From contig BTVV01000060.1 of NCBI GenBank assembly GCA_045863855.1, positions 1 through 35,047 on the forward strand: a stretch of 35,047 nucleotides of DNA, read 5' to 3'. Under the pieces are notes generated by a model. The model was given only the letters and a program-made list of their open reading frames with translations, did not search any database and was not told where the DNA came from. A program made the translations under genes and the position numbers. Source of the stretch: Planctomycetota bacterium (GTDB lineage Bacteria > Planctomycetota > SZUA-567 > H5-PLA8). Below are positions 14,565-30,469 of this stretch, piece by piece. Within the stretch, counting starts at the first letter, position 1, and every line of letters begins with the position of its first letter.

Positions 14565-14580
14565 GAGCTGAGCCGCGCGC

Positions 14581-15030
14581 ATGAAAAGCTTCGCGTTCCG
14601 CCTCGAATCGCTGCTGAAGCTGCGCGTGCAGGAAGAACAGGCCGGCCAACTTGACTTCGCCGAAGCGCGGCGCGAAGAAGCGCGCGCGGAAGCCGAAGCG
14701 CACCGAATCGAAGCGCAGCTCACGGACCTCGACCGGGCGTGGTCGTTGCAGGTGCAGGAAGCGCGCATCGACGCGACGGAACTGGTGCGCTTCGACGCGT
14801 ACCGGAGCATGCTGCGGGAACGATCGGCCGCGGCCCAGGCGGAATGGCGCAAGCGCCGGGACGCGGCCCTCGAAGCTTCCCGAAACCTGGAAGGCGCGAT
14901 GCAGAAGCGCAAAGTCCTCGAGAAACTGAAAGAGCGCCGCTACTCGGCTTGGCAGCAAGAAGCAGCTCAACGCGCGCAAGCCGAGTTGGATGAACTGGGA
15001 GCGCGCCGCCACGGCCGCAAGGAGTCCTAA
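14581..15030 (+). CDS. fliJ: Flagellar export protein FliJ
   Basis: FAFRLESLLKLR N-terminus, coiled coil, KVLEKLKER..ELDE; follows fliI. Confidence 0.92.
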   Translation: MKSFAFRLESLLKLRVQEEQAGQLDFAEARREEARAEAEAHRIEAQLTDLDRAWSLQVQEARIDATELVRFDAYRSMLRERSAAAQAEWRKRRDAALEASRNLEGAMQKRKVLEKLKERRYSAWQQEAAQRAQAELDELGARRHGRKES

Positions 15031-15723
15031 ATGCTTACCGATCGCCTTCTCCGAGCCCGCAGGATTCGACGCGCTCCGCGCGGACAGGTCTTGTTCGGCG
15101 CGCTGCTCTTCGCGGCGGGGATCGTGCTGGGGGCCCTGGCGCTGGGTGGCGCACGGATGGCGGGTTTCGATCCGCTGGCGCGGCACGCCCCGGATGCGAA
15201 GCCCGAGCCGGTAAAGGTGGAGGCGGATCCCAGCGCACTGCAGGAGCCCAGCCAAACGGAAGTCGAGAAGATGATTCAAGAGCTGCAAGAATTGCAGGCA
15301 CGGACGGAAAGCGACCGGCAAAAAACGATGCTGGAACAAAGCCGCGTCGCACAAGAGCGTTCGGCCTTGGAGGTGATGCGCCAGCAGATCGACGCGGCTC
15401 AAAAGCAGTTGGATGCGAAGGCAGCCGAGTTGCAGGCGGCGAGTTCGGCCTCGGAACAGCAGAACCTCAAGCGCCTGGCCAAGATGTGGGCCGGTATGAC
15501 GCCCGCGGCGGTTTACGGCGTGGCGAAGGAACTCGGTGAGGTGACCACGGCGCGCATTCTGTTCGCGATGAGCGACAAGCAAGTCGCGCCGGTTCTGGAA
15601 GCCTTTGCCGCACAGGGCGAAGCTGGCACCCGCCTTGCTACCTCGGTGACCAATCGGCTGCGAACGTTCATTCCCGCCGGCCAAAGCGAAGCAGCACCTT
15701 CGGAAACCGGGTCGAACCCATGA
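15031..15723 (+). CDS. MotE/YlxF/FlbB-like membrane-anchored coiled-coil protein
   Basis: One TM helix, long coiled coil, C-terminal MgtE_N-like LKRLAKMWAGMTPAA...ARILFAMSDKQVAPVL; sits in the fliJ-fliK slot. Confidence 0.8.
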   Translation: MLTDRLLRARRIRRAPRGQVLFGALLFAAGIVLGALALGGARMAGFDPLARHAPDAKPEPVKVEADPSALQEPSQTEVEKMIQELQELQARTESDRQKTMLEQSRVAQERSALEVMRQQIDAAQKQLDAKAAELQAASSASEQQNLKRLAKMWAGMTPAAVYGVAKELGEVTTARILFAMSDKQVAPVLEAFAAQGEAGTRLATSVTNRLRTFIPAGQSEAAPSETGSNP

Positions 15724-16958
15724 TGCCTTTACCAGCTCTTCCGTCCGGCGACTTTCAGCCCGCGCAGTCCGGCGCGCCGCGTTCCCAGGAACGTACTCCG
15801 CGCGGAGACGGTGGGTTCAAATCAGGCGCCGACGTGGCGTCCTCCCGCTGCGATGCGCCGCGAGAAACGCGCGAGCTGCGCGAAGGCGCCGAGGCCGAAG
15901 ATGCCGCCCGCAAGTCTGGGGAGCCTTCCGAAGTCCCCTTCGCGGCGATGCTGCAAAGCATCGTCGCCACGCCCAAGCTTCCCGTTGCGCCGCCGGTCGC
16001 GTTGAATTTCGAGATCGAAGCATCCGCCGAACTGGGTGAAGCGGAAGCGGCGGCGTTCGCGGATCGAGCCGGCGGCGAGCTTGCCGAAGGCCGCGCACGC
16101 AGCGCGGTTCCGGCGCTGGCGGCGGCGGAACTGAGCGTACTGGCGCAGACTCCCAAAGGGTGGCAGGAGACTTGGCTTCCGCTGGCCTTGGACGGCGCCG
16201 TAGCGGAAGCGCGGCCGCCAAAAGCCTCGTTGACCGCAAGCGCAGTCCAGCCGCAAGCGCCGGCGACGACGAACGGATTCAAAGCGAGCGAAGGGTCCGC
16301 GGCGATTCTTCCGGCGAGCCCGGAACCGACGCTCCCCGAAGGCAAAATCGAGGCAGCGGTTTCCGAACGTGCGCAGGTCTTGCCGGGCGCGTCTGCCGAG
16401 AAGAGCGCCGTGCTTGCCGCAAGGATGGCCGCGGACGGAGACGACGCGCAGCTTGATGTAGAAATTTCCCCCGATAGCCGCGCGGCGGAAACGCGCTCGC
16501 TGCGCGACGCTTCGAGCGTGCGTGAAGCGCGCCCAGCCACTCGTCCCACTCCAGAAGCCGCGGCCGAGCAAATCGGCGAAGCGTCTCGGCAGGCGTGGAC
16601 GCAAGGGCACAAGACCATCGAGTTGGAGTTGAAGCCGCCGGGTTTGGGACTGGTGCGGCTGAAGCTATCGGGCGATTTCACGCCCGGCGGCGCGCAGGGC
16701 CTGCGCATCGAGATCCACGCCGCTCAGCCGGAAGCTCGGCAATGGCTTTCGGCGCATGCTTCCGAACTGCGCGACGGACTTGCGGCATGGGATGTGCGGT
16801 TACAGCGCTTGGCCGAACCGGCGCAGAGCACGCCGGAGCAAAGCTGGAAGCGCCAGGATGGCCAGCACTCGCAGGGACGGCACGACGGGCAGGGCTCGCG
16901 GCAGCGACAAGGGCGCGGCGATGAGCGCGCGGAACGCTTCCGCGACCTGCTGGGCTAA
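15720..16958 (+). CDS. fliK: Hook-length control protein FliK
   Basis: Ala/Pro-rich low-complexity body, C-terminal LELKPPGLGLVRL..LRDGLAAWDV domain, Q/G-rich tail; precedes flgD. Confidence 0.85.
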   Translation: MMPLPALPSGDFQPAQSGAPRSQERTPRGDGGFKSGADVASSRCDAPRETRELREGAEAEDAARKSGEPSEVPFAAMLQSIVATPKLPVAPPVALNFEIEASAELGEAEAAAFADRAGGELAEGRARSAVPALAAAELSVLAQTPKGWQETWLPLALDGAVAEARPPKASLTASAVQPQAPATTNGFKASEGSAAILPASPEPTLPEGKIEAAVSERAQVLPGASAEKSAVLAARMAADGDDAQLDVEISPDSRAAETRSLRDASSVREARPATRPTPEAAAEQIGEASRQAWTQGHKTIELELKPPGLGLVRLKLSGDFTPGGAQGLRIEIHAAQPEARQWLSAHASELRDGLAAWDVRLQRLAEPAQSTPEQSWKRQDGQHSQGRHDGQGSRQRQGRGDERAERFRDLLG

Positions 16959-16991
16959 GGATTCGCAGTACGGCACCGAAGGAGAATTCAC

Positions 16992-17387
16992 GTGGTCAGC
17001 GCGGTGAGCGGCGGTTCGGGTTCGAAGACCGATTTCAACTTCTCGATCAAGACCGAGGAATTCCTGCATCTGCTGCTGACGGAATTGCAGAACCAGGATC
17101 CCTTGGAGCCGATGTCGAACAGCGAAATGATGGCTCAGGTTTCGGACCTGACGAGCTTGCAGATGACGACGGATCTGGGGACGAGCATTTCGGGCCTCTC
17201 GAACCAGAACAGCGTGCTCCTGGCGTCCAGCCTGCTGTCGCGGCAGGTGGAGTTCGTGGATGCGGCGGGGACGACGCAGACGGCCCGGGTGTCCGACGTG
17301 CGCGTGGGCCATGACCAGAAAGTGTTCCTGGGTCTGGAGAACGGAAGCACGATCGAACTGGGCAGCATCACGCGGCTCATGCAGTAA
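16992..17387 (+). CDS. flgD: Hook capping protein FlgD (short form)
   Basis: FLHLLLTELQNQDPLEPM; GTG start after AAGGAGA; 131 aa. Confidence 0.94.
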   Translation: MVSAVSGGSGSKTDFNFSIKTEEFLHLLLTELQNQDPLEPMSNSEMMAQVSDLTSLQMTTDLGTSISGLSNQNSVLLASSLLSRQVEFVDAAGTTQTARVSDVRVGHDQKVFLGLENGSTIELGSITRLMQ

Positions 17388-17436
17388 GCGCCGCGCCCTT
17401 CGGCGCAGCGCAGCGTACACGGGAAAGGAACCGTAC

Positions 17437-18312
17437 ATGATTCAGTCACTGTTCAGCGGCATTTCGGGCCTCAAGACGCACCAGCAATTGCTGAGCGTGG
17501 TCTCGAACAACCTGGCAAACGTGAACACGGTGGCGCACAAAGCCAGCCGCGCGCTGTTCCAGGATACGCTCTCGCAGGTCGTTCAGCCTCCGACGCAGTC
17601 GGGCCCGCTGGTGGCCGGCACGAACGGCATCCAGATCGGCCTGGGCGTGGGCCTCTCGTCGGTGACCAACCTGTTCACGCAGGGATCGCTGCAATCGACG
17701 GGCGTGAATACGGACTTGGCGATCGAAGGCTCGGGCTTCTTTGTGGTCCGCGACCCCACGGCTCCGGCAGGCGGCGGCGTGTACTACACCCGCGCCGGCG
17801 CGTTCTGGGTCGATGCGAACAACTACCTGGTGGATTCGAACGGCTACCGCATCCAGGGCTACCAGACGCCAGACCAATCGGCGCCGACGGTTCCCGCGGC
17901 CGGCGACCCGGTCCAAGACTTGGTCATCGCGCCGGACGCGACGCAAACCGGCAACATGGTTTCATTCTCGATCGAATCCTCGGGCCGCATCCTGATGCAG
18001 CTCGACGACGGCAGCGTGATTCCGGTGGCGTACATCGCGATGAACAACTTCACGAACGAAGAGGGGCTGTTGAAGGTGGGCCGCAACCTGTACCAGGAAA
18101 CGCCCGCGGCCAACCGGCTCTTCACGGGTTACCACCAGCCGGCGACCGACGGGATCGGCGCGATCCGCGCGGGGTTCCTGGAAATGTCGAACGTGGACCT
18201 GGGTACGGAGTTCACGGACATGATCCGCGCGCAGCGCGGCTTACAGGCGAACTCGCGGACGATCACGACGTCGGACGAGGTGCTGCAGGAACTGATCAAT
18301 CTGAAGCGCTAG
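17437..18312 (+). CDS. flgE: Flagellar hook protein FlgE (short, 291 aa)
   Basis: SLFSGISGL..NNLANVNT, GTNGIQIGLGV, DLAIEGSGFF, YYTRAGAF, LEMSNVDLGTEFTDMIRAQRGLQAN. Follows flgD; ATG after AAAGGA. Confidence 0.88.
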   Translation: MIQSLFSGISGLKTHQQLLSVVSNNLANVNTVAHKASRALFQDTLSQVVQPPTQSGPLVAGTNGIQIGLGVGLSSVTNLFTQGSLQSTGVNTDLAIEGSGFFVVRDPTAPAGGGVYYTRAGAFWVDANNYLVDSNGYRIQGYQTPDQSAPTVPAAGDPVQDLVIAPDATQTGNMVSFSIESSGRILMQLDDGSVIPVAYIAMNNFTNEEGLLKVGRNLYQETPAANRLFTGYHQPATDGIGAIRAGFLEMSNVDLGTEFTDMIRAQRGLQANSRTITTSDEVLQELINLKR

Positions 18313-18406
18313 CGGCGGCGGCCGCCGGAGCGGCCGGCGGGCATTCGAACGGGGCAGCGGTCCGGGCTTGAGCGCCCGGGCGGCATGACGGACGGGAAGC
18401 GCAACC

Positions 18407-19264
18407 GTGGTTATTCCAGGCATCATCTTCATGCTGGTCTGCGTGCTGACCGGCTATTCGATGTCCGGCGGGCAGATCGGCGCGATCCTGCACCCGGCCG
18501 AGTACATCACGATTCTGGGCGCGGCCGCGGGCACGGCGGTGATCATGGCGCCCATGAAGATCCTGAAGAAGATCATCGCGAGCGTGATCGGCGCCTTGAA
18601 GGGTGGTCACAAACTGGGCAAGGGCGCCTACATGGAACTGCTCACTTGCCTGTTCCAACTCTTCTCGCTGGCACGCAAACAGGGCTTGCTGGCGCTGGAA
18701 TCGCACGTCTCCGATCCGCACAAGAGCGACATCTTTTCCAAGTACCCCAAACTGATGAAGGACCATCACGCGCTGGAGTTCCTGGTCGAGTCGCTGCGCC
18801 TGATCATCGACGGCAGCGTGCAGGCCGACGAACTGGGCCAGCTGCTGGATACGTCTCTGGAGACTCATCACGCGGAATCGCACATGCCGATCAACGTGAT
18901 GACGCGCGTGGGCGACGGGTTGCCGGGCATCGGGATCGTCGGCGCGGTACTGGGGATCATCATTACGATGGGTGCGATCGACGGCCCGCCGTCGGAGGTG
19001 GGCCATAAGGTCGCGGCGGCGCTGGTGGGCACGTTCCTGGGCGTATTCTTCGCATACTGCCTGATCAATCCGATCATCGTCTCGATCGAGCAAGAGCACG
19101 CGGAGGAGGAGAAGTTCCTCGAGGTGATCAAGGTGGGACTCCTGAGTTTCGTAGGCGGCGCGACGCCCGGCACGGCGATCGAATACGCGCGCCGGAGCGT
19201 CTTCTCGTTCGACCGGCCCAGCGCCGAAGAGATCGATAAGGCCTGTAAAGCGGCGCGCGGATAA
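18407..19264 (+). CDS. motA: Stator protein MotA (E. coli-like H+ type)
   Basis: LHPAEYITI, ARKQGLLALE, LPGIGIVGAVLG, ALVGTFLGVFFAY. Confidence 0.96.
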   Translation: MVIPGIIFMLVCVLTGYSMSGGQIGAILHPAEYITILGAAAGTAVIMAPMKILKKIIASVIGALKGGHKLGKGAYMELLTCLFQLFSLARKQGLLALESHVSDPHKSDIFSKYPKLMKDHHALEFLVESLRLIIDGSVQADELGQLLDTSLETHHAESHMPINVMTRVGDGLPGIGIVGAVLGIIITMGAIDGPPSEVGHKVAAALVGTFLGVFFAYCLINPIIVSIEQEHAEEEKFLEVIKVGLLSFVGGATPGTAIEYARRSVFSFDRPSAEEIDKACKAARG

Positions 19265-19275
19265 GGATTGAGGCC

Positions 19276-20202
19276 ATGGCGGACGCGGTTCCGGAAGCCC
19301 CGAAGGTCAAGATCATCTACAAGAAGAAGAAGGGCGGGCACGGGCACCACGGCGGCGCGTGGAAGGTGGCGTTCGCCGATTTCATGACCGCGATGATGGC
19401 GCTGTTCCTGGTGCTGTGGATCATGGCGCAGAGCCAGGAAGTGAAGCAGGCGGTGGCGTACTACTTCCGGCACCCGACCGACTACGAAGGCGAAGCGGAC
19501 GCGATCTTGCGCGGCAACATGGGCCTGATGGACCACAAGAGCGGGCGCATGGACGTGATCCCGAACATTGTCGATTCGCCGGGCGGCGGACAGCATCAGA
19601 CGAAGCGCCCCGAGAAGGCCGCGTCGACGCAGTCGGTCGCCGGCGCCTCTGCGCGCGCGGCCTCCGAACCGGGCCTGCGCCCGGCCAATCTGGAACCGCT
19701 CAAGGAAGAACTCAAAGACGACGTGCGCACGTTCCTGAGCCTGGCCGACCTGCTTTGGGATCAGCTCAAGATGGACCCCAGCTTCATGCGCGTGCGGGAG
19801 CAGGTGATGATCCAGACGCACGAAGAAGGACTTGTGGTGCAGATCGTCGAGCGGCCGGGACTGCCGCTGTTCGAAGCACACTCCGACGTATTGCGCGCGG
19901 AAGTGCGCGGCGTGCTCGCCACTCTGGCGGCGCAAATCAAGGAACTGCCCAACAAGCTGGAGATTGACGGGCACGGTCCGGGGCTGAGCAGCACGAAGGA
20001 CACGATCTGGCTCGGTAGTGCGCACCTGGCGGAACGGGCGCGCTTGGCGCTCTTGGAACGCGGGCTGCGTCCGGAACAGATCGTCAAGATTTCGGGCTGC
20101 GCGGACACTCGGCCGCTGAACCCCAAGGACGCGGAAGACGGCCTGAATCGACGCATCTCTATCCTGGTTCGCCCGCGGCAGTGGCAGCCGGAACGCTTCT
20201 AG
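19276..20202 (+). CDS. motB: Stator protein MotB with degenerate OmpA-like domain
   Basis: GGAWKVAFADFMTAMMALFLVLWI TM with the conserved Asp; C-terminal NRRISILV. GHTD and NxxLSxxRA are altered. Confidence 0.93.
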   Translation: MADAVPEAPKVKIIYKKKKGGHGHHGGAWKVAFADFMTAMMALFLVLWIMAQSQEVKQAVAYYFRHPTDYEGEADAILRGNMGLMDHKSGRMDVIPNIVDSPGGGQHQTKRPEKAASTQSVAGASARAASEPGLRPANLEPLKEELKDDVRTFLSLADLLWDQLKMDPSFMRVREQVMIQTHEEGLVVQIVERPGLPLFEAHSDVLRAEVRGVLATLAAQIKELPNKLEIDGHGPGLSSTKDTIWLGSAHLAERARLALLERGLRPEQIVKISGCADTRPLNPKDAEDGLNRRISILVRPRQWQPERF

Positions 20203-20349
20203 CTCTTCTTCTACTATAAGGTAGTAGCCTTCAACAGTCGTCCGTGCGAAGCGCCTCATCCGCACACGGACGCACCTGAGCAGTTTGGCGTTATACGGTA
20301 ACCACTTTATGCCAGATGATTTATGTAATCCCACCAATAACTTTTGATG

Positions 20350-20365
20350 CGGTCCCCAGTTTGCT
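20350..20365 (+). promoter_or_regulatory. Sigma54 -24/-12 promoter of fliL-fliM-REC::fliN
   Basis: CGGTCCCCAGTTTGCT = GG-N10-GC with TTGCT in an AT-rich intergenic gap. Confidence 0.68.
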
Positions 20366-20388
20366 TTTCATTTAACGATAGTCCGCCT

Positions 20389-20405
20389 TCGGCAAAATTT
20401 GCCGA
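20389..20405. promoter_or_regulatory. Perfect palindrome TCGGCAAA-A-TTTGCCGA, candidate bEBP site in the fliL leader
   Basis: 8-bp perfect arms; matches the GGCA-N5-TGCC motif. Confidence 0.6.
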
Positions 20406-20440
20406 CCGGCCAATGAATCGACTCGGCGAGGATGTATCCG

Positions 20441-20950
20441 ATGAGCGAACCCGCGGCACCCGAACAAACACCTGCTTCGAAGCGCAGCAAGGTGAAGCTG
20501 CTGGTGATGATCTTGGCGTTGGGGATTGTGCTGGGCGGCGGCGGACTGGGCGCTTACATGGCGTTCTTCAACAAGGATGCGCATGCGGAACATCCTGAAG
20601 TGGATGCGCATGCACCCAAACCGACAGTGCCGGACACGGAGGCCAACAAATCGAAGATCGTGACCTTGAAGGCGATCGTGGTGAATCTGCGCGATACGCG
20701 CGCTTCGCGGTACTTGAAGGTGACGATCGGGCTTGAGACGAGCAACGAGAAGGTGGTGGCGGAGCTGAACGAGATCCAGGTTCCGCTGAACGACTTTTTC
20801 ATCGACCGGCTGAGCGACTTGAAGATCGAAGACGTGGATAACTCGCAGGGACGCAACAAGCTCAAGCGCGAGCTTCTTTTCGGCGCGAACGAGATGCTCA
20901 AATCGGGCGTGATCAACAAGCTTTACTTCAGCGAATTCGTGGTCCAGTAG
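20441..20950 (+). CDS. fliL: Basal-body associated protein FliL
   Basis: TM followed by GGGG, IVVNL..RYLKVTI, GRNKLKREL, LYFSEFVVQ. ATG 20441 follows GAGGA. Confidence 0.94.
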   Translation: MSEPAAPEQTPASKRSKVKLLVMILALGIVLGGGGLGAYMAFFNKDAHAEHPEVDAHAPKPTVPDTEANKSKIVTLKAIVVNLRDTRASRYLKVTIGLETSNEKVVAELNEIQVPLNDFFIDRLSDLKIEDVDNSQGRNKLKRELLFGANEMLKSGVINKLYFSEFVVQ

Positions 20951-20960
20951 GAGCCTCCAC

Positions 20961-21923
20961 GTGGGCAGCGTACTCTCCAAAGAAGAGATGGACGCCCTGA
21001 ACGACGCGCTGAAGGTCGGCCGCGTCGATACGCAGGGGAACGGTTCGCCTGCGGCGCTGGCGGCGAAGCCGTACGATTTCCAGAAATCGATCAAATTTCC
21101 CGCGCGCAGCCGCGCGCTGTTCCAGTTGATGCACGAAGGCTTGGCCCGGCATCTGGGGCGCGAGCTGACGTCTCTTCTCAATTTGAATTGCGAGTCGAAG
21201 CTGACGGATCTGCAGGTGCTGGCGTTCAAGGAGTTCGACGCGACGCTTCCTTCCAACGCCACCTTGCTGACCTTCCAACTTTCGGCGTTCGAGCTTCCAA
21301 TCCTCATGGTCATTCATCCGCGCCTGAGCATTGCGCTGCTGGACCGCTTCTTGGGCGGCAAAGGCGCGGTGGACGACGAAGCGCGGGCCACGTCGGAGCT
21401 GGAGTCGGAGGTGCTCGAGGAAACCGTCGGATTGTTGCTGGAGCAGGTGCGCGGCGCTTGGAAACGGCTGGCGGACTCCCCGCTGGAAGGCCGGCGCCGT
21501 TTCGCGAACCGCCAGTTGCTCCAATTCGTGGCGGGCGAAGACACGGTGGTGGTGGCCTCGGTGGAGGTGAAGCTTCCGGAGTCGACGGGGCTGCTGACGA
21601 TCTGCTACGCCGAGCGCGCGCTGGAACTGGCCGACGAACACTCGGGCCGCAAGAGCGACCGCGAGGCCGAAGCGCAGAGCGAAGGTCCGGCCCACGTGAC
21701 GACGGATCTGGTGGAACGACTGAGCGTGGACGTCGAGGCGTTTCTTCTGCCGATCGAAATTCCTGTGCGAGAAGTGATGTTCCTGCAGGCGGGCGATGTG
21801 CTGATGTTCGACCACCAGGTGCCGCATCCGGTGGAGCTGCGTGTATCGGGCGGGCTGCGGTTCGAAGGATACATGGGACAGCACGGCGACCGGGTGATGT
21901 GCGCGATCACGGAGCGGCATTGA
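20961..21923 (+). CDS. fliM: Switch protein FliM
   Basis: VLSKEEMDAL N-terminus, PYDF, FLGGKG FliG-binding motif, SELE, C-terminal SPOA-like LQAGDVL. GTG after AGGAG. Confidence 0.88.
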   Translation: MGSVLSKEEMDALNDALKVGRVDTQGNGSPAALAAKPYDFQKSIKFPARSRALFQLMHEGLARHLGRELTSLLNLNCESKLTDLQVLAFKEFDATLPSNATLLTFQLSAFELPILMVIHPRLSIALLDRFLGGKGAVDDEARATSELESEVLEETVGLLLEQVRGAWKRLADSPLEGRRRFANRQLLQFVAGEDTVVVASVEVKLPESTGLLTICYAERALELADEHSGRKSDREAEAQSEGPAHVTTDLVERLSVDVEAFLLPIEIPVREVMFLQAGDVLMFDHQVPHPVELRVSGGLRFEGYMGQHGDRVMCAITERH

Positions 21924-21924
21924 G

Positions 21925-22731
21925 ATGAGCGAAAGCGCGACCCCTGCCGCGGCCGCAAGCACGCTGAAGCTGCTGGTCGTCGACGACGAGCCGGCCATGC
22001 TCCGGCTGCTTAAGGATTCCTTCGAAAGCGACGGGCATCGGGTGCTGGAGGCGTCGAGCGCCGAGCAGGCGCTGGAGGTGCTCGATCGGGAGCCGGTGGA
22101 TCTGGTTCTGACCGACCAGCGCATGCAGGGCATGACGGGGACCGAACTGCTGCTGGAGATCGGAAAGCGCCGCTTGAGCACGGGCGTCATTCTGATCACG
22201 GGATTCGCCACCCTGGAATCTGCGATGGAAGCAATGCGGTTGGGCGCGCTGGACGTGGTCCAGAAGCCGCTCAACCTTTCCGAACTAAACGAGAAGATCG
22301 CGCGCTACGCGCAGAAACGGCGGCTGCATACGCCGTCCAGTGTGGCTCTTCAAGCAGCCAAACCGCGCGCCCAGGAGGAACCCGCCATGCCCACCAAGAC
22401 TCCCGAAGAGGCCGTCGAAGTCCAGCGCGTGGATCTGCCGGCCATCGGCGCGGGCTCGACACAGGACGCGCCGCAGGGGATCGACAAGATTCTCGATATC
22501 CCGGTGCTGGCGATGGTGCGGCTGGGCAAGACCAGCCTGCAGATAGCCGATCTGCTGCGCCTGGGCGTGGGCTCGGTGGTTGAACTGAACAAGCACGCGG
22601 GCGATCCGGTGGAACTGCTGGTGAACAACAAGCTGGTGGCGCTGGGCGAAGTGGTAGTGGTGAACGACACGTTCGGCTTCCGCGTGACAAAGATCCTGGA
22701 TCCCAAGCAGCGCATTCAACAGCTCGCGTAA
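21925..22731 (+). CDS. fliN: Receiver (REC) domain-FliN fusion protein
   Basis: N-terminal REC (VVDDE, LTDQRM, ITG, QKP); C-terminal FliN SPOA (ILDIPV..LGKT..LLRLGVGSVVELNKHAGDPVELLVN..GEVVVVNDTFGFRVT). Internal AGGAGG-N8-ATG at 22387. Confidence 0.92.
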   Translation: MSESATPAAAASTLKLLVVDDEPAMLRLLKDSFESDGHRVLEASSAEQALEVLDREPVDLVLTDQRMQGMTGTELLLEIGKRRLSTGVILITGFATLESAMEAMRLGALDVVQKPLNLSELNEKIARYAQKRRLHTPSSVALQAAKPRAQEEPAMPTKTPEEAVEVQRVDLPAIGAGSTQDAPQGIDKILDIPVLAMVRLGKTSLQIADLLRLGVGSVVELNKHAGDPVELLVNNKLVALGEVVVVNDTFGFRVTKILDPKQRIQQLA

Positions 22732-22759
22732 CGCTTCGAACAGGCTTTTCTCCCCAACC

Positions 22760-22799
22760 CATGCCCGCCCGGAACGTACTCCGGGCCGCATGCCCTTTT
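22760..22799 (+). terminator. Possible intrinsic terminator after fliN
   Basis: GCCCGGA-ACGTAC-TCCGGGC stem, extended by CATGC/GCATG, followed by CCCTTTT. Confidence 0.45.
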
Positions 22800-22879
22800 G
22801 CCTCACCGCTCACCGCTTCGAAATCGCAACATCCTGCTCCGCCACACGCGCACGTCCGCAGGGGCCGGCGGGCGCATCC

Positions 22880-22923
22880 CGGCAGAATTCGCCGAACTGC
22901 GCGGCTTTCCGGCATCTCTTTCC
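22880..22923. promoter_or_regulatory. Tandem GGCA-N5 palindromes upstream of the fliO promoter
   Basis: CGGCA-GAATT-CGCCG (22880-22894) and GGCA-TCTCT-TTCC (22911-22923), 30 bp apart. Confidence 0.55.
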
Positions 22924-22925
22924 AG

Positions 22926-22941
22926 TGGCACCGATGTTGCT
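22926..22941 (+). promoter_or_regulatory. Sigma54 -24/-12 promoter of the fliO..flhA..fliA unit
   Basis: TGGCAC-CGATG-TTGCT, a perfect consensus, 30 nt before the fliO ATG. Confidence 0.88.
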
Positions 22942-22971
22942 TCTGTTCCTCCCAGGCAAGGAGGAGAAATC

Positions 22972-23553
22972 ATGCGCAGTACAATCACTCGAACTCAGCG
23001 AGCACTCTTCGCGGCGCTCCTTTTAGTCGGCGCGCTCGCGGCACCGCATGCGCGGACGGCGGAAGGCGACGGGATGGTGCTCGATCCGCACGGCAAGCTG
23101 GTCAAGTCCTCGACGACGGCCGCGCGCGGCGGGCCCGCGGTGGGAGCCGATGCGGCGAGCGACTCGTGGCTGCGCAGCGCGGGAACGTTCCTGGTGCTGC
23201 TGGGCCTGGCCGGCGGTGCGCTGGTGTTGATGCGGCGGCAGCAGGCGCTGGTGCGGGCGAAAGGCGGCGCACAAAGCCAGCTCGAACTGATCGAACGGAT
23301 GCCGCTGGGGCCGCGACGAGAATTGTTGCTGGTCCGCGCGGGCGGGCGGGTGCTGGTGCTCGCGGCGCTGCAACAAGACCTGAAACTGATCTCCACGCTT
23401 CCGGCCGGGACGCTTCCGGCGCAAGCCGGTGCGCAGGACTTCCTGGCGCTGCTGAACCGCCAGGCGGCCATCCAGGAAGCCGCACCGGTGAAGGCTTCCG
23501 CGCGCAACCCGCTGGACGAGGTCGATTGGCCGGCCGCGGCGGTGCGGAGCTAA
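22972..23553 (+). CDS. fliO: FliO/FliZ family export protein
   Basis: Signal-like N-terminus, TM helix, LELIERMPLGPRRELLLVRAGGRVLVL. ATG after AGGAGGAG; precedes fliP. Confidence 0.88.
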   Translation: MRSTITRTQRALFAALLLVGALAAPHARTAEGDGMVLDPHGKLVKSSTTAARGGPAVGADAASDSWLRSAGTFLVLLGLAGGALVLMRRQQALVRAKGGAQSQLELIERMPLGPRRELLLVRAGGRVLVLAALQQDLKLISTLPAGTLPAQAGAQDFLALLNRQAAIQEAAPVKASARNPLDEVDWPAAAVRS

Positions 23554-23556
23554 CCC

Positions 23557-24342
23557 ATGCGCGCCCTTTCGCTCCCCACCCGCTCCCTGCTTCCGTTCGT
23601 GCTTGGCCTGGCGCTCTGGCAAGCGCAGGCCGGCGCCGAAGAAAGCAAGCCCGCGGGCAATACGCCGAACCTTGAGCTGAACCTCGGCGCGAAGGGCGAT
23701 GCGCAGACCGTCAGCGTCTCGATGAAGATCGTGGTGCTGATGACGCTTCTGTCGGTCGCCCCGGCGCTGCTGGTGATGATGACGGCCTTCACGCGGATCG
23801 TGATCGTGCTCAGCTTCCTGCGGCATGCGCTGGCCACGCAGCAGGTCCCGCCCAACATGGTGCTGATCGGTCTTTCGCTGTTCATGACGATGTTCGTGAT
23901 GGCGCCGATCTGGGAGCGCGTGCACCAGGACGCGTACAAGCCCTACATGGAAGGAAAGATCGGCAACGAAGAGGCCATGGAAAAAGCACTCGTGCCGATG
24001 CGCGATTTCATGGGCCGGCAGACGCGGCAGAGCGACTTGGCGCTGTTTCTGGAATTGAGCCACGCGCCGGAGCCGCAGTCCTTCGACGAGATCAAGACCA
24101 CGACGCTGATTCCGGCGTTCATCCTCAGCGAGCTGCGCACCGCGTTCCATATGGGTTTCCTGATTTTTCTTCCGTTCGTGATCATCGATTTGGTGGTCGC
24201 CTCGGTGCTGATGGCGCTGGGCATGGTGATGCTACCGCCGGCGATGATCGCACTGCCGATCAAACTGCTGCTGTTCGTGATGGCCGATGGCTGGCATCTG
24301 GTGATCCGCTCGCTGGTGGTCTCGTTCCAGGCCGGCGGATAG
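23557..24342 (+). CDS. fliP: Export gate protein FliP
   Basis: MMTAFTRIVIVLSFLRHAL..QQVPPN, LIPAFILSEL, LPFVIIDLVVASVLMALGM, DGW. Confidence 0.97.
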   Translation: MRALSLPTRSLLPFVLGLALWQAQAGAEESKPAGNTPNLELNLGAKGDAQTVSVSMKIVVLMTLLSVAPALLVMMTAFTRIVIVLSFLRHALATQQVPPNMVLIGLSLFMTMFVMAPIWERVHQDAYKPYMEGKIGNEEAMEKALVPMRDFMGRQTRQSDLALFLELSHAPEPQSFDEIKTTTLIPAFILSELRTAFHMGFLIFLPFVIIDLVVASVLMALGMVMLPPAMIALPIKLLLFVMADGWHLVIRSLVVSFQAGG

Positions 24343-24352
24343 GAATCGCGCG

Positions 24353-24622
24353 ATGAGCGACGGGACGCTGTTGGAACTCTTCGGGCTGGCCGCGATGGTG
24401 GCGGTGAAGCTCGCCACGCCGCTCCTGCTGGCCGCGGTGATCGTGGGCCTGGCGGTGAGCCTGTTCCAGGCGTTGACGCAGATCAACGAAAGCACGCTCT
24501 CGTTCATTCCCAAACTGATGGTGATGGGCTTGGTGCTGTGGCTGTGCCTGCCGTGGATGAGCCGCGAGTTAGTCGAGTTTACGACACGCATCCTGCGCAT
24601 GATCGGGGAGGTCACTCGATGA
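24353..24622 (+). CDS. fliQ: Export gate protein FliQ
   Basis: GLAVSLFQALTQINESTLSFIPKL. Confidence 0.96.
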   Translation: MSDGTLLELFGLAAMVAVKLATPLLLAAVIVGLAVSLFQALTQINESTLSFIPKLMVMGLVLWLCLPWMSRELVEFTTRILRMIGEVTR

Positions 24623-25389
24623 CGGTGACCTACGCGGCATTGTGGCCTTTTTTCACCGTACTGATGCGGCTGGGCGGCGCGTTCATGACGGCGCCGGGTT
24701 TCAGCAACCTCCAAGCGCCGATGCGCATTCGCCTGGGCGCGCTGCTGGCGTGCACGTTTCTGCTGGGTTCGGCGCTGGGCGAAAAGGCCGCTCCGCCGGC
24801 CGATTCGTTCATTCTATCGGTCCTCTTCGTGGAACTGGTGATCGGCGTGGGCATCGGATTGGCGTTTCGCTTCACGATGCTGGGCGTCGAAGCCGCAGGC
24901 GAACTGGCCGGACTGCAGATGGGCATGGGCATCGCCTCCACAATCGATCCCGCGTCGGGCAACAACGCGCTCTTCACGCACGCGCTCTTCGCGATGCTGT
25001 ACACGGCGCTGTTCTTGGCGCTGGATGGGCATCACACGGTGCTACGTACGATCTTCGCGAGCTACGAGATCGCGCCCCCCGGCCGAGCGCTGGACTTGCA
25101 AGCCGGGCCGCTGCAACTGATCGACCAGAGCGCGCAGGTGATCCTGATCGGGCTGCGCCTGGCGGCGGGGTTCATCGTACCGCTGATGGCCGTGACCTTC
25201 GCAATGGCGCTGATCTCGCGCGTGTTTCCTCAAGCCAATGTTTTCGTGCTTTCGTACGCGGCGAGCCTGCTGGTGGGGCTGACGCTCTTCGCGACGACGA
25301 CGCCCGCAGTGCGCGCGATCGTCGCCGAAGGGATCCGCGGCGGAGCCGAGGGCGCGGGGCGCTGGATCCGAGCAGCAGCAGGCGTTTAA
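24619..25389 (+). CDS. fliR: Export gate protein FliR
   Basis: AAGELAGLQMGMG..DP, LFLALDGHH, ISRVFPQANVF; ATGA overlap with fliQ. Confidence 0.94.
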   Translation: MTVTYAALWPFFTVLMRLGGAFMTAPGFSNLQAPMRIRLGALLACTFLLGSALGEKAAPPADSFILSVLFVELVIGVGIGLAFRFTMLGVEAAGELAGLQMGMGIASTIDPASGNNALFTHALFAMLYTALFLALDGHHTVLRTIFASYEIAPPGRALDLQAGPLQLIDQSAQVILIGLRLAAGFIVPLMAVTFAMALISRVFPQANVFVLSYAASLLVGLTLFATTTPAVRAIVAEGIRGGAEGAGRWIRAAAGV

Positions 25390-25410
25390 GCATAACAACG
25401 AGGCCGCCAC

Positions 25411-26502
25411 GTGAGCGACCAGAACGACCAGGACAAGACCGAGCCGGCAACACCGCGGCGCCTTGAAGAGGCGCGCAAGGAAGGTCGCGTCGCACGCTCG
25501 AGCGATCTGTCCACGGCGCTGACGATCGTCGCGATGCTGGCGGCGTTCCAGATGGCCGGCCCGCGCCTGTTCGACGCGATGCGTGACGGCATCAAGGGCA
25601 CGCTGCATGTCGTGCCGGCGAACACGCTGGACGGGCCTTCCGTCCAGCAGTTGTGCTTCGATACGGCCGCGCCGGTTGCCGCGGCGTTTCTGGCGTTCGC
25701 GGCGTGCGTGCTGGCGATGGGCGTGGGCGGATCACTCTTGCAGACCGGCATCCTGTTCACGACCAAACCGCTGGAGCCGAGCCTGGACCGCATCAATCCG
25801 ATAAGCGGATTCGGGCGGATTTTCTCAATGCAGTCGGTGGGCACCTTCTGCTTCGGGCTCTTCAAGCTGCTGGCGGTGGGCTGGATCGTGTACGCCTTCC
25901 TGATGAGCCAGCGGCACGAGTTTCCGTCGCTCTCACGCTTGCAGGCGGTGGAGATCCTGCAGCGCGGAGGCGAACTGATCACGGCGCTGGGCTGGCGCGT
26001 GGCCGCGGCGATGCTGGCGATCGGCCTGGGCGATTACGCATTCCAGCGCTGGCGCCACGAGCGCGAGATGCGCATGACGAAGCAAGAGATCAAGGACGAA
26101 CAGAAGCAGCAGGAAGGCGACCCGCACATCAAGCAGCGCATCCGGCAGATCCAGCGCCAGCGCGGCATGAAGCGCATGATGGAAGACGTGCCGAAGGCGA
26201 CGGTGGTGATCACGAACCCGACGCACTTCGCGGTAGCGCTGCGCTACGAAGCGGGCGCGATGGCGGCTCCGACGGTGGTGGCGAAGGGCCAGAATCTGGT
26301 GGCACTGAAGATCAAGGCGCTGGCGGCGGAGCACGGAGTGCCGGTGCAGGAAGACAAGCCGCTGGCGCGCGGACTTTTCCGTACGGTGGAAGTGGGCCAG
26401 GAGATTCCGGCCGAGTTTTACCAAGCGATCGCGCAGGTGCTGGCGGCGCTGCGCCGGCGTAACGGTCCTGCCGGCGGCACGGTGCGGGAGGCGCGCGCGT
26501 AA
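25411..26502 (+). CDS. flhB: Export switch protein FlhB
   Basis: DKTEPATPRRLEEARKEG, MTKQEIKDE..EGDP, intact NPTH autocleavage motif. Confidence 0.97.
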   Translation: MSDQNDQDKTEPATPRRLEEARKEGRVARSSDLSTALTIVAMLAAFQMAGPRLFDAMRDGIKGTLHVVPANTLDGPSVQQLCFDTAAPVAAAFLAFAACVLAMGVGGSLLQTGILFTTKPLEPSLDRINPISGFGRIFSMQSVGTFCFGLFKLLAVGWIVYAFLMSQRHEFPSLSRLQAVEILQRGGELITALGWRVAAAMLAIGLGDYAFQRWRHEREMRMTKQEIKDEQKQQEGDPHIKQRIRQIQRQRGMKRMMEDVPKATVVITNPTHFAVALRYEAGAMAAPTVVAKGQNLVALKIKALAAEHGVPVQEDKPLARGLFRTVEVGQEIPAEFYQAIAQVLAALRRRNGPAGGTVREARA

Positions 26503-26504
26503 TC

Positions 26505-28685
26505 ATGGCTCAAGCAACCGCTCCAGCGGCTCCCCTCGGCGCAACCGGCAACCTGGCGCTCTTCGCCCGCTACGCGGACGTGGGCCTCGCCTTCGGCGTC
26601 GTGGGCGTGGTGATCGTGCTGGTGATCCCGATCCCTACGATCGCGCTGGACCTGCTGCTGTGCTGCCAGATCGCGCTCTCGCTGGCCGTGATCATGGGCA
26701 CGCTGTATTGCAACGAGCCGCTGGACTTCGGCGGCTTCCCCTCCCTGCTCCTCTTCGTCACGCTATTCCGTCTGGCGCTTAACGTCGCCTCTTCGCGGCT
26801 GATTCTGCTACAGGGCGACGCGGGCTCGGTGATCCAGTCCTTCGGCGATTTCGTGGTGGGCGGCAATTACGTCGTCGGCATGACCGTCTTTTTGATTCTG
26901 GTGGCGATCCAGTTCGTGGTGATCACGAAAGGCTCCGGGCGCGTGGCGGAAGTGGCGGCGCGGTTCACGTTGGATGCGATGCCAGGCAAGCAAATGGCGA
27001 TCGACGCGGACCTGAACGCGGGGCTCATCGACGAAGCGCAGGCGAGGATACGCAGGCAGAAGATCGAACGCGAAGCCTCCTTCTTCGGTGCGATGGACGG
27101 CGCGAGCAAGTTCGTACGCGGCGACGCGATCGCCGGATTGCTGATCACCGCGATCAACATCCTCGGCGGGCTGGCCATTGGCGTGCTTCAGAAAGATATG
27201 GCGGTGGGCGATGCGCTGAAGAAGTACACGCTGCTGACGATCGGCGACGGGCTGGTGACGCAGATCCCTGCGCTGCTGGTTTCGACGGGCGCGGGCATTC
27301 TGGTGACGCGCGGGGCGAGCGAGTTCAACCTCGGGCAGGACCTGGGCAAGCAGCTCCTGCTGCGCGCGCGGCCGATCCAGATCACGGCGGTCTTCCTGCT
27401 GATCTTCGCCTTGGTGCCGGGGCTGCCAACGATTCCGTTCGGGCTGCTCTCGGCGGTGCTCTTCTTCGTCGCCTGGGCCGTGGACAAGAAGAGCCTGGCC
27501 GAGCCGGCGGAAGCGGCCGCGCCGGCGGGCAAGGGCGGGCCGGGCGGTTCCGGCGGAACGGCCCCCGCGCGGGAGAGTCTGGAGCCGTTCTTGAAGCAAG
27601 ATGCGGTGGAACTGGAACTGGGCACGACGCTGCTGCAACTCGTGGATGCGCAACGCCAAGGCGACCTGTTGGGTCGGATCGCGCAGATCCGCAAGCGCCT
27701 GGCGGCCGAACTGGGCATCGTGGTCCCGTCGATCCGCGTACGCGACAACCTGAAGCTCACGCCCCGGCGTTACCAACTCCGCATCCGCGGCGCGGTGGTG
27801 GCGGAGCACGAACTGTTCCCCGACAAGCTGCTCGCGATCAACCCCGGCCATGCGCGCCAGCCGCTGCAAGGCACGGCTTCGACCGATCCGGCCTTCGGGC
27901 TGCCGGCCTTCTGGATCACCGACGCGCAGCGCGGACGCGCCGAAGCTTTCGGCTACACGGTGGTCGACGCGACCTCGGTGCTCTCCACGCACGTCCAGGA
28001 AGTGCTGCGCGACCACGCGGCGGACCTGTTGAGCCGGCAGGATGTGCAGGCGATGGTCGAACGGCTGAAAGAGTCCGATCCGGCGGTGGTCAAGGATGTG
28101 GTGCCGAACCAGATCACGCTTCCCATGTTGCACCGCGTCCTGCAAGGCGTGCTGCGCGAACGGGTGCCCGTGCGCGACATCGTCACGGTGCTCGAGACGT
28201 TGGGCGATCAAGGCGGCAAGGGCGAGACCATTCCGAATCTGGTCGAGCAGGTGCGGCTGGCGCTCGCGCCGGCGTTCGTAGGCAGCTACGCGTCGGACCA
28301 GGGCAAGCTTCACGCGCTGGCGCTGGCGCCGGAACTGGAAAGCCGGCTGTTGCGCTCGCTGGTGCGCGCCGAGCAGGGCCTCACGCTGGTCCTGACGCCG
28401 ACGCAGGTGCCGCGCTTGCTGAAGGCGCTGGAAGAGCGGCACACGAAGGCGAGCCGGCGGCAGTCGCGGCTGGTGCTGCTGTGCTCGGCGGCGCTGCGCC
28501 CGCACGTGCAGCGGCTCCTGAGCCGCGCGCTGCCGAAGCTGCCAATCGTTTCTTACCTAGAGGTGCCGCGCGGACTGCAGTTCGAAATCATGGACCAGGT
28601 GCCGGCAACGGCGCTGGGCGACGAGGCGGGCGGGATGTTCGGCACGCAGCCGATGACCGGCGGCGAAGCGGCTCCGGCGACGTAA
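26505..28685 (+). CDS. flhA: Export gate protein FlhA
   Basis: FHIPEP motif RVAEVAARFTLDAMPGKQMAIDADL, GAMDGASKFVRGD, TIGDGLV, DPAFGLPAFWI. Confidence 0.97.
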   Translation: MAQATAPAAPLGATGNLALFARYADVGLAFGVVGVVIVLVIPIPTIALDLLLCCQIALSLAVIMGTLYCNEPLDFGGFPSLLLFVTLFRLALNVASSRLILLQGDAGSVIQSFGDFVVGGNYVVGMTVFLILVAIQFVVITKGSGRVAEVAARFTLDAMPGKQMAIDADLNAGLIDEAQARIRRQKIEREASFFGAMDGASKFVRGDAIAGLLITAINILGGLAIGVLQKDMAVGDALKKYTLLTIGDGLVTQIPALLVSTGAGILVTRGASEFNLGQDLGKQLLLRARPIQITAVFLLIFALVPGLPTIPFGLLSAVLFFVAWAVDKKSLAEPAEAAAPAGKGGPGGSGGTAPARESLEPFLKQDAVELELGTTLLQLVDAQRQGDLLGRIAQIRKRLAAELGIVVPSIRVRDNLKLTPRRYQLRIRGAVVAEHELFPDKLLAINPGHARQPLQGTASTDPAFGLPAFWITDAQRGRAEAFGYTVVDATSVLSTHVQEVLRDHAADLLSRQDVQAMVERLKESDPAVVKDVVPNQITLPMLHRVLQGVLRERVPVRDIVTVLETLGDQGGKGETIPNLVEQVRLALAPAFVGSYASDQGKLHALALAPELESRLLRSLVRAEQGLTLVLTPTQVPRLLKALEERHTKASRRQSRLVLLCSAALRPHVQRLLSRALPKLPIVSYLEVPRGLQFEIMDQVPATALGDEAGGMFGTQPMTGGEAAPAT

Positions 28686-28724
28686 GGCCACGGCACGACC
28701 AGACGACGAAGAAGGGGGTGAGCG

Positions 28725-29603
28725 ATGCGTATCAAGACTCTACGAGGCGCGACGATGCTGGCGCTGCTGGACGCGATTCGCGCGGAACTGGGCCCGCAGG
28801 CCGTGCTGCTTTCGGTGCGCCGCGTGCCGCTGGATCCGCTGGCCGGCATGGACGCGGGCAGCGTGCTGGAAGGCGCGGCCGCGGTGGATCCGGATGCCGT
28901 GGCGCAACCGGAACCGGCGGCGACGGGCACGTACGACCGCCCGGTGATGCCCAGCGCGCCGCGGGCCGCGGAGATGCGTCTCGGTTCCAAGAGCGGCGCG
29001 TCCCAAGAACGGGACCGCGCAGGCGTGGCAGTGTGGCTGCTGGTGGGCGCACCCGGCAGCGGAAAGACCGTGGCTTCGGCAAAAGTTGCGGCGTGGCTGC
29101 GCGGCAAGCAATCCCAGCCGGTAGGACTGCTTTCGACCGATGCCTGCAACACGCGCCAGGAACCGGCGTTACGAATGCACGCGCGAAAATTGGGATTGCC
29201 GTGGACGGCCGCACAATCGGCCTCGGAGTTGCATGAGAAGGTACAGAGCTGGAACGGAAGGGGGCCGCTGGTGGTCGACACGCCGGGTGTGGACGGAGCG
29301 CAAGTAGCGAGTTTGCGAAGCGTGAAGGCGGCGCTGGAGCAGACCGGCGCGCGCGTCGAGACGCATCTGGTGCTGAACGCCGTGGCATCGGCCACCGAAC
29401 ATTCGCGGCTCTGGAAAACCTTCGCGCCGATCGGATGCGGGCAGACGCTGCTGACGCACCTGGACCGGACCGAAGACGGAGCGGATCTGGTGGCGCGGCT
29501 GCTGAGTTCGAAGATCGGCATCTCGTTCCTGGGCACGGGCCCGAAGATTCCGGACGATCTGATCCTGGCCACGCCCGAACGGATGCTGCACGTTTTTGCC
29601 TGA
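28725..29603 (+). CDS. flhF: FlhF-like SRP-family GTPase, short and degenerate
   Basis: MRIKTLRGATM..IRAELGPQAVLLS N-terminus, GAPGSGKT, DTPG, THLD, GTGPKIPDDL; located between flhA and flhG. Confidence 0.85.
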   Translation: MRIKTLRGATMLALLDAIRAELGPQAVLLSVRRVPLDPLAGMDAGSVLEGAAAVDPDAVAQPEPAATGTYDRPVMPSAPRAAEMRLGSKSGASQERDRAGVAVWLLVGAPGSGKTVASAKVAAWLRGKQSQPVGLLSTDACNTRQEPALRMHARKLGLPWTAAQSASELHEKVQSWNGRGPLVVDTPGVDGAQVASLRSVKAALEQTGARVETHLVLNAVASATEHSRLWKTFAPIGCGQTLLTHLDRTEDGADLVARLLSSKIGISFLGTGPKIPDDLILATPERMLHVFA

Positions 29604-29625
29604 ACCCCTGAATCGGAGAGACGCG

Positions 29626-30465
29626 GTGAAACCAGTTCCTCGCCAGACGAAGACCTACGCGATCGCCAGCGGAAAAGGCGGCGTGGGCAAGACGAACGTC
29701 GCGGCGAACCTCGCGATCGCGCTGAGCGGCATGGGACAGCGGGTGCTGCTCTTCGATGCCGACTTAAGCCTGGCGAATACGGATCTGCTCTTCGGCCTCG
29801 CGGCCAGCGCGACGCTGGAGCATGTGATCGCCGGACGGCGGCGGCTGGACGAGATCGTGGTGCAGGGACCGGAAGGCGTGGACATCATTCCGTCGGGCTC
29901 GGGGATCGCCGAGCTGGCGGACCTGGCGCCCGAACGGCTGAACGTGATCGCGGAGCAACTCGCGGCGCTGGCCGGCTCGTACGACACGGTCCTGATCGAC
30001 GTGCCGGCGGGAATCGGCCCGGTGGCGCGGCGCTTTTCGTACCTGGCCGACGAGATCCTGCTGGTGATCACGCCGGAGCCGACGTCGGTCGCGGACGCTT
30101 ACGCGCTGGCGAAGTTGCAGCGCAAGGAAAGCCCCCACGGGCGGCTGCGGCTGATGGTGAACATGGCTCAGGACGACGAAGAAGCGCGGCGCGTGGCGCA
30201 GGCGTTCTCGGAGATCATGGTCCGCTTCCAGTCGTGTCCGGTGGAAAGCCTGGGCCACATTCCTTGGGACGCCAACGTGCCAGAGGCGGTGCGCCGCCAG
30301 CAGCCCTTCATGACTTGCTATCCGAATTGCCGCGCCTCGCGCGTGCTGAAGGCGATCGGGCGGACGCTGTTGCTCCAGCGCGAAGCCTTGGCCGGCGCGC
30401 AGGCGGCGAGTCCGGGCGGCTGGAACCGCCTGCTCACGTGGATGGATCCGCTTCCGGAGAACTGA
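29626..30465 (+). CDS. flhG: MinD-like ATPase FlhG/FleN
   Basis: SGKGGVGKT, FDADLSLAN, PSGSG, TPEPTSVADAYAL, C-terminal amphipathic WNRLLTWM. GTG 29626 follows GGAGAG (TTG 29596 is an alternative start). Confidence 0.92.
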   Translation: MKPVPRQTKTYAIASGKGGVGKTNVAANLAIALSGMGQRVLLFDADLSLANTDLLFGLAASATLEHVIAGRRRLDEIVVQGPEGVDIIPSGSGIAELADLAPERLNVIAEQLAALAGSYDTVLIDVPAGIGPVARRFSYLADEILLVITPEPTSVADAYALAKLQRKESPHGRLRLMVNMAQDDEEARRVAQAFSEIMVRFQSCPVESLGHIPWDANVPEAVRRQQPFMTCYPNCRASRVLKAIGRTLLLQREALAGAQAASPGGWNRLLTWMDPLPEN

Positions 30466-30469
30466 ACGC

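Follow-up and report, generated by a model that had tools for sequence, protein, structure and literature searches.

A receiver domain fused to the only FliN of a planctomycete flagellar island

The flagellar island and its two-domain FliN

The DNA analysed here (the window) is a stretch of 35,047 nucleotides, contig BTVV01000060.1 (C60), from a planctomycete genome (G000; assembly GCA_045863855.1; 6.9 Mb, 93.9% complete). The features that concern us are the following, in window coordinates.

705..35047, forward strand: half of a flagellar island of 61 kb that lacks chemotaxis genes; the other half lies on contig C80 of G000, 511-26999
5939..7228, forward strand: FleS-like cytoplasmic PAS histidine kinase, a candidate phosphodonor, co-distributed with intact receivers
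7230..8660, forward strand: FleR-like sigma-54 activator (REC-AAA-HTH), directly upstream of flgB, with the same distribution as the kinase
11578..12621, forward strand: fliG, the third C-ring subunit
20961..21923, forward strand: fliM, with an N-terminal L-S-x-x-E-M-D-A-L motif of the CheY-docking type
21925..22731, forward strand: REC-FliN fusion gene, 268 aa, the only fliN of the genome
21964..22308, forward strand: receiver domain, about aa 14-128, with D20/D21, phospho-acceptor D64, T92 and K114-P115 intact; NtrC-class
22309..22479, forward strand: disordered linker, aa 129-185, pLDDT <50, ending with a conserved V-x-P-V-x-L-P motif
22369..22389, forward strand: internal Shine-Dalgarno GGAGG and ATG (M155, ATG at 22387), the probable start of a 114-aa plain FliN
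22480..22728, forward strand: FliN SPOA domain, with A225 equivalent to Salmonella FliN A93 and the hydrophobic patch V243-V245 retained
22926..22940, forward strand: sigma-54-like site, TGGCAC-N5-TTGC, downstream of the fusion gene and upstream of fliO, a consensus match only
29596..30465, forward strand: flhG, whose product may be another partner for the N-terminal motif of FliM

The fusion gene is uninterrupted from ATG to stop and starts one base past the fliM stop codon. An initial annotation of this DNA had read it as a receiver with all catalytic positions in place, joined to a complete FliN SPOA domain in one ORF, and the profile searches agree: Pfam places Response_reg at aa 17-125 (E 3e-27) and FliMN_C at aa 188-258 (E 3e-22), the fliN model TIGR02480 scores 88.7 bits against a cut-off of 84.05, and D20, D21, D64, T92 and K114-P115 are all found. 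The same annotation called it the only fliN in the window, which holds genome-wide, as the two FliMN_C matches in G000 are fliM and the fusion ORF. The AlphaFold model (mean pLDDT 68.7) has a confident receiver, a disordered linker, whose length ranges from 30 to 62 aa over the fusion family, and a SPOA domain. With two domains and 268 aa the protein is unlike the small single-domain FliN, although a 114-aa product is possible. Comparison with the 97%-identical orthologue from a relative in the same genus, G002, gave pN 0.014 and pS 0.243 for the receiver, 0.040 and 0.288 for the linker, and 0.005 and 0.196 for the SPOA domain; judged by these values, the receiver is under purifying selection. 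An RNA contig, X16 (21900-22186, depth 2.6), covers the end of fliM and part of the receiver and is too weak as a sign of expression.

A fusion of this kind could also be an artefact or a recent accident, in which the stop between a receiver gene and fliN was lost and FliN is made only from M155, as the strong internal Shine-Dalgarno and ATG at the domain junction of G000 and G002 might suggest. Contigs assembled in two other studies nevertheless contain no stop: that of run X3 spans 21151-22654 and X7 spans 21541-22434, so that both cross the linker at 22300-22390, where the initial annotation had wanted continuity checked, and both show 0 differences from the window. The X4 contig is broken between 22360 and 22398 and is uninformative on the linker. 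Relatives have no stop there either, since 58 clusters of homologues, reaching down to about 31% identity, each form a single open frame, and most members are without such an internal start. An accidental fusion is thus largely refuted and very improbable; by the sequence, the fusion is genuine and conserved, its residues for phospho-chemistry are intact, and it is the sole fliN.

The M155 start, which an earlier reading of the sequence had missed together with Val111 (discussed below), has a Shine-Dalgarno duplex of -10.3 kcal/mol, whereas 0 of 141 internal ATGs from 14 window genes were at or below -8. The site is kept in G002 (-11.4 kcal/mol) although adjoining codons vary. In a set of 14 further family genes, a site of comparable strength precedes an ATG only in L187, and L184, 97% identical to L187, is without that ATG; a Met just before the linker motif occurs in 18 of the 38 family sequences that have lost the phospho-acceptor (see below). 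Because the strong ribosome site at M155 is kept in G002, we suggest that the G000/G002 genus probably produces a 114-aa FliN next to REC-FliN, while the family at large may not.

Exact TGGCAC-N5-TTGC sites occur in the window at 15624 (before fliK), 22926 (before fliO) and 34635 (near the window end). Sigma-54-like sites with at most one mismatch number 6 against 3.1 expected, and 10 of 100 shuffles gave as many, so the excess is not significant.

In G002, the C80 and C60 sequences are contiguous and form a 61.2-kb island (C1:3113991-3175183), flanked by a demethylase-like gene and a TetR gene; BLAST found no che genes in the island. In G000, contig C24 carries the demethylase-like and TetR genes with only 125 bp in the island's place (17425-17551), and the flanks of C80 and C60 differ from those in G002, including an IstB fragment and a repeat of about 65 bp that lies near both ends in the same orientation and recurs elsewhere in G000. 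This points either to movement or re-acquisition of the island or to a mixture of strains in the assembly. With flagella in only 7 of 17 family genomes, the system acts as a module that is gained and lost and carries its own kinases along.

Family distribution and two receiver subtypes

Both domains were found in 41 of 120 homologous proteins listed, P0001 being the window's own cluster. Adding 14 clusters from an alignment search and 3 from a search of representatives gave the 58 clusters mentioned above, or 59 rows with the window, and the fused architecture is present in 59 of 59. The named members, labelled simply FliN in databases, are Planctomycetota (P0017, P0037, L047-L049). Within the family, FliMN_C occurs in 6 of 16 relatives, all 6 with the fusion between fliM and fliO; including G000, the fusion is thus present in 7 of 7 flagellated genomes. 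P0241, only 115 aa long, could be a family member without a receiver, or its start could have been called wrongly.

Outside the family, no match spanning both domains is among those listed for 41 FliN-bearing genomes of other families in the class, three FliN inspected from such families are plain proteins of 133-144 aa, and a receiver in the same ORF was found at 0 of 77 plain-FliN loci from other taxa. On this evidence, resting on the 77 loci and the 41 genomes, REC-FliN is a family-restricted invention. A profile search of 1.84 billion representatives yielded full-length matches as 7 of the best 150, the rest being swamped by multi-REC proteins, so that distant independent fusions could be hidden. 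Family members made up 3 of 80 loci listed in a generic FliN pattern scan of contigs, and 11 of the 13 loci from a metagenome pattern scan, the other 2 having no match. An Atlas search returned generic receivers only, and no chain with both domains was among the rows listed in fold and PDB searches. One apparent fusion, L098 (match 16-267), is actually a Bacillota fliY followed directly by a separate cheY-like gene, whereas the receiver in the window is fused.

The family falls into two subtypes. The intact subtype, 21 of 59 rows, keeps the D-D pair, the phospho-Asp, Thr/Ser and Lys and forms one clade (support 97 in a quick tree), with all five catalytic positions in 21 of 21 rows over 48-97% identity. 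The remaining 38 rows are pseudo-receivers, in which the phospho-Asp is lost and the REC fold retained. Of these, 36 make up another clade (100), in which the phospho-Asp is replaced by Gln, His, Lys, Asn or Tyr and the Lys mostly by Thr. The other two, P0021 and P0272, carry Pro at the phospho-site, branch as sister to the intact rows in the quick tree and seem to represent a separate loss. Assuming a phosphorylatable ancestor, the phospho-site would have been lost twice with the fold kept.

Such persistence would be expected if the receiver had a structural role, enlarging or bracing the C-ring or docking FliH/FliI, FlhG or a kinase, somewhat like the FliY middle domain, with phosphorylation incidental. 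The 38 rows that keep the domain after probably two separate losses favour this, as do the residues G37, A103, G107, A108, P115 and L121, which are invariant in both subtypes, and some structural role must hold for the pseudo-receivers. Against it stand the five catalytic positions kept throughout the window protein's clade, surface residues that are not common to the subtypes (cross identity 0.10-0.26), and P0241, if it is indeed REC-less. As a full account of the window protein, we consider a purely structural role quite unlikely.

In the intact rows, pairwise identity comes to 0.96 at the phospho-site, 0.69 at the kinase face, 0.69 at alpha4-beta5-alpha5 and 0.43 at alpha2/alpha3; the corresponding values for pseudo rows are 0.61, 0.63, 0.57 and 0.35, with residues that differ from the intact ones. 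As the pseudo-receivers also conserve the kinase face (0.63), its conservation is not diagnostic.

The initial annotation held that the receiver resembles those of the two local sigma-54 activators (bEBPs) rather than CheY. The class assignment survives, the local kinship only in part: in G000 the highest mean REC identity, 40%, is to an unlinked bEBP on contig C46, against 38% for the FleR-like protein, and the EAMRLGA motif noted as common to the fusion and the first local bEBP is present also in the C46 protein. In structure comparisons, LuxO-like and FleR receivers come first, closely followed by CheY. In a tree of 158 receivers, a quick version with weak basal forks from which no donor is claimed, the family CheYs form a separate clade (99) and FleR receivers form another; a third flagellar bEBP, encoded on C80, and two unrelated proteins join the fusion receivers in a weak group (87). 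This third bEBP has likely orthologues in pseudo-REC genomes. By tree and identity, the receiver is NtrC-class and not CheY-derived. Using what we take to be the CheY numbering, V111 falls at the Tyr106 position, and Val is found there in 20 of 21 intact rows, which implies that the standard Thr-Tyr output is altered.

Kinases and chemotaxis genes in the flagellated genomes

The initial annotation had linked the receiver to the kinase at 5939..7228. Of 20 genomes in the order, four (G000, G002, G004 and G009) have a FleS-like kinase matching at E<=3e-108, the next best match being 1.5e-51, and these four also have a FleR-like activator matching at E<=1e-120. The pair is present in 4 of 4 genomes with an intact receiver and 0 of 3 with a pseudo-receiver (G005, G013 and G014, of which G013 is only 74% complete), and among the genes tested only FleS/FleR tracked the intact subtype. 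In G005 and G014, a TPR gene runs directly into flgB with no kinase pair in between. This co-distribution lends the proposed link a measure of support at the level of gene content, but it is one clade split among kin and not a set of independent events, and therefore no p-value is possible. The metagenome loci end short of the FleS/FleR region, so the co-occurrence is based on 7 genomes; an unpublished genome, G017, enters the counts of 20 and 61 genomes and no others. Two TPR proteins (window 2585-5922), the second with a lipoprotein-like N-terminus, precede the kinase or flgB in G000, G002, G004, G005 and G014.

At nine receiver positions that we take to be kinase-facing, the intact rows are near-constant (EAMLQ[SA][VL]N[LM]), and among 80 G000 receivers FleR ranks 4 in similarity to the fusion. 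FleR and the fusion receiver have E, M and S in common at the kinase-facing alpha1 positions.

The C80 half of the island encodes other signalling proteins beside its flagellin genes (locus L197):

9373-10197: HisKA-only ORF
4187-5635: third sigma-54 activator (bEBP)
1669-3252: PAS hybrid kinase (PAS-HisKA-HATPase-REC)
675-1637: HDOD protein

As the island carries these other kinases, the FleS-like protein is the likeliest donor and not the sole candidate. A tethered regulator could instead be fed by the PAS hybrid kinase or HisKA-only protein of C80, by a host kinase or by a small-molecule phosphodonor, and the weak grouping of fusion receivers with that of the third bEBP encoded alongside would fit this. 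The kinases beside the C80-type bEBP, however, differ among G000, G004 and G009, while the kinase-facing residues of the fusion are near-constant, and it was FleS/FleR alone, among the genes tested, that followed the intact subtype. A tethered regulator fed by a donor other than FleS is in our judgement distinctly unlikely.

Chemotaxis genes show roughly the opposite distribution to the intact receiver, with absences that rest on incomplete assemblies (G000 93.9%, G009 91%). In G000, there are 0 matches to CheW, MCP and CheX, tblastn finds no CheA or CheB catalytic domain but receiver-domain matches only, and there is one unlinked CheR-like methyltransferase. G009 likewise has 0 CheW, MCP and CheX. 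In G002 (8 contigs), the sole chemosensory locus, which we label Wsp-like on its gene content, has 1 MCP and a 147-aa single receiver outside the CheY clade, and is found also in the non-flagellate G001. Among the pseudo-REC genomes, G005 has CheA, W, Y, B, R and X inside its flagellar cluster, G014 has an orthologous set (CheA 61%, CheY 51%), and G013 has fragments of chemotaxis genes. No CheY-type system is thus seen in 3 of 4 intact-REC genomes, including G000, and two pseudo-REC genomes have one. The exception is G004, which combines an intact receiver and FleS/FleR with a CheA-W-MCP-R-Y-X-B system on another contig and a further CheX on its flagellar contig. The Wsp-like locus of G002 (L164:1527-13100) is missing from G000, where both of its flanks are present (C210, C216).

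Possible roles at the C-ring

The N-terminal FliM motif has the family form L-[ST]-x-x-E-[IVM]-[DE]-x-L, with L5, E9, L13 and A16 invariant in 13 of 13 sequences and an identity of 0.58 vs 0.25 in the next stretch, and it is kept also in genomes in which no che genes were found. In Shewanella, FlhG reportedly binds the same motif, and the motif here may be retained for FlhG binding. It also matches the CheY-binding motif of FliM, LSQxEIDxLL (PMC5677366). The position equivalent to FliN A93 (A225, by alignment to Salmonella FliN) is Ala in 52 of 59 rows. The FliN hydrophobic patch also binds FliH. In E. coli, CheY~P is captured by the FliM N-terminus and then switches the motor via FliN A93 (PMC7957414; PMC7355467). 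A complex prediction of the receiver (aa 10-136) with FliM 1-42 scored 0.00 and counts neither for nor against docking. Plain FliN of other families in the class (L028:1378-1812, L029:1420-1827 and L032:1480-1881) start with [LM][ST]QxxIDALL, a CheY-docking-like motif that is normally FliM's, and most such genomes have three FliMN_C genes.

By domain content and position, REC-FliN is a FliN and not a FliY, CheY or Cle. With FliN (TIGR02480; Salmonella FliN, PDB 8umd_D) it has in common a SPOA domain over the cut-off, the place between fliM and fliO, the A93 equivalent and the hydrophobic patch, and it differs in its 115-residue N-terminal receiver, which none of the 77 plain-FliN loci from other taxa has in the same ORF. 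FliY likewise carries a signalling domain N-terminal to a FliN SPOA in the C-ring (PMC7355467), but what it adds is a CheC-like phosphatase, whereas the window protein adds the phospho-acceptor itself; the fusion ORF has no CheC (PF04509) match and stays below the cut-offs of the FliY models, NF005995 among them, with a score of 111.6 against 218. With CheY it has in common the receiver fold and the full catalytic set, sited where CheY acts. CheY, however, is diffusible and works with CheA and receptors, neither of which was found in the 93.9% complete G000, while the window's receiver is tethered, NtrC-class and has Val at the Tyr106 position. The Cle proteins of Caulobacter are CheY-like switch regulators that work without CheA; they are free, CheY-derived and activated by c-di-GMP via an Arg-rich motif (PMC5677366), whereas this receiver is fused to FliN and its translation is without the tandem [YF]xGP[DE][RK]R that follows the receiver in Cle.

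The regulatory pair resembles FleSR, FlrBC and FlgSR in having a cytoplasmic PAS kinase and a sigma-54 activator before flgB, with flhF/flhG in the cluster. For those systems, the available part of the source reports a requirement for FliF and FliG and not for FliM or FliN, and describes no second C-ring substrate (PMC7064773). SctQ/Spa33 genes provide a precedent for two products, a full-length protein and a short FliN-like one made by internal initiation, and for a 1:3 FliM:FliN ratio (PMC4832279); their N-terminal part is FliM-like, that of the window protein is a receiver, and the internal start here looks genus-specific. No description of a natural REC-FliN fusion was found in full-text searches of the largely open-access literature.

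Taking these results together, we tentatively favour, at a little less than an even chance, the view that REC-FliN is a tethered, kinase-controlled regulator of the C-ring, probably fed by the FleS-like kinase, where the kinase partner and the output are what we infer. It would then work like a FliN with a CheY-like appendage. Given a 1:3 FliM:FliN ring, many receivers on flexible linkers would lie at the rotor base, near the FliM N-terminus and the FliN and FliM sites used by CheY. A histidine kinase of the island, the FleS-like PAS kinase being the likeliest, would phosphorylate D64 as a second substrate beside FleR, and REC~P would change C-ring contacts in place and thereby affect rotational bias, pausing or engagement. 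The outcome would be motor control without CheA, CheY or chemoreceptors, a slow state-dependent switch rather than adapting chemotaxis. The M155 start probably supplies plain FliN in this genus, which would leave receivers on only part of the ring. With loss of FleS/FleR, the receiver may have become a non-phosphorylatable structural or allosteric module.

Support for a tethered switch comes from fixation of the fusion in the seven flagellated family genomes, the conserved phospho-site, the co-distribution with FleS/FleR, the Che-less genomes, the FliM motif, the FliN Ala and the precedent of the Cle proteins. It is opposed by G004, where an intact receiver coexists with a Che system, and by the NtrC-class receiver with its Val at the Tyr106 position; and FleS as the donor is opposed by the rank of FleR, only fourth, and by the weak grouping of fusion receivers with the third bEBP and not with FleR.

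The same kinase could make REC-FliN a phosphate sink or assembly checkpoint, as the initial annotation had also proposed. REC-FliN would compete with FleR for FleS phosphate, so that the amount or assembly of FliN would set sigma-54 transcription of flgB and later genes, with rotation unaffected. The presence of the phospho-site exactly where FleS/FleR is found fits this kinase link as well as it fits a switch; the receiver is NtrC-class with E, M and S at alpha1 positions as in FleR; a ring with some 111 FliN would offer a large sink (PMC4832279); and flagellar kinases sense FliF/FliG assembly, the kinase of V. cholerae and P. aeruginosa requiring FliF, FliG and the export gate (PMC7064773). 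That precedent holds only in part, however, since as noted above the known systems need neither FliM nor FliN. An output face would not have to be conserved in a sink, yet residues 92-111 show mostly 90-100% conservation among the intact rows, and a pure sink would leave unexplained why the fold persists in the phospho-dead rows. We regard the sink as unlikely on its own, although switch and sink can both hold.

A more far-reaching combination, possible but somewhat unlikely as a whole, would be that the 61-kb island is mobile and self-contained, with a motor switched by its built-in receiver, which is phosphorylated by the kinase that drives the flagellar genes, and with a start codon that sets the receiver-bearing share; in the sister lineage, the switch would have decayed to a pseudo-receiver where CheA-CheY is present and FleS/FleR absent.

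Described motor switching relies on diffusible CheY reaching the C-ring, and a receiver-FliN fusion would make a C-ring subunit itself a two-component substrate. It may be one answer to how motors are controlled in flagellated bacteria without chemotaxis genes, and it puts the tether model to a natural test: in that model, the FliM N-terminus does no more than deliver CheY to FliN and FliM-M. Controls for such work exist within the family, with 21 intact and 38 pseudo rows and genomes with and without FleS/FleR.

The window has other features of note. A PilZ protein (33465-34199) at the end of the flagellar operon has RxxxR and DxSxxG motifs, which we take in their usual meaning, and is a possible c-di-GMP brake; its N-terminal half has no detectable family, and the idea that this half is a receiver was dropped, no REC being detectable in it. 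Between flhG and fliA lies a 92-aa hydrophobic ORF (30470-30748) that has no Pfam match and is conserved in G002, G009 and L182. A second FliK-domain protein follows fliA (31682-33160), and in G002 and G009 a short ORF resembling the FlhB C-terminus lies downstream of it.
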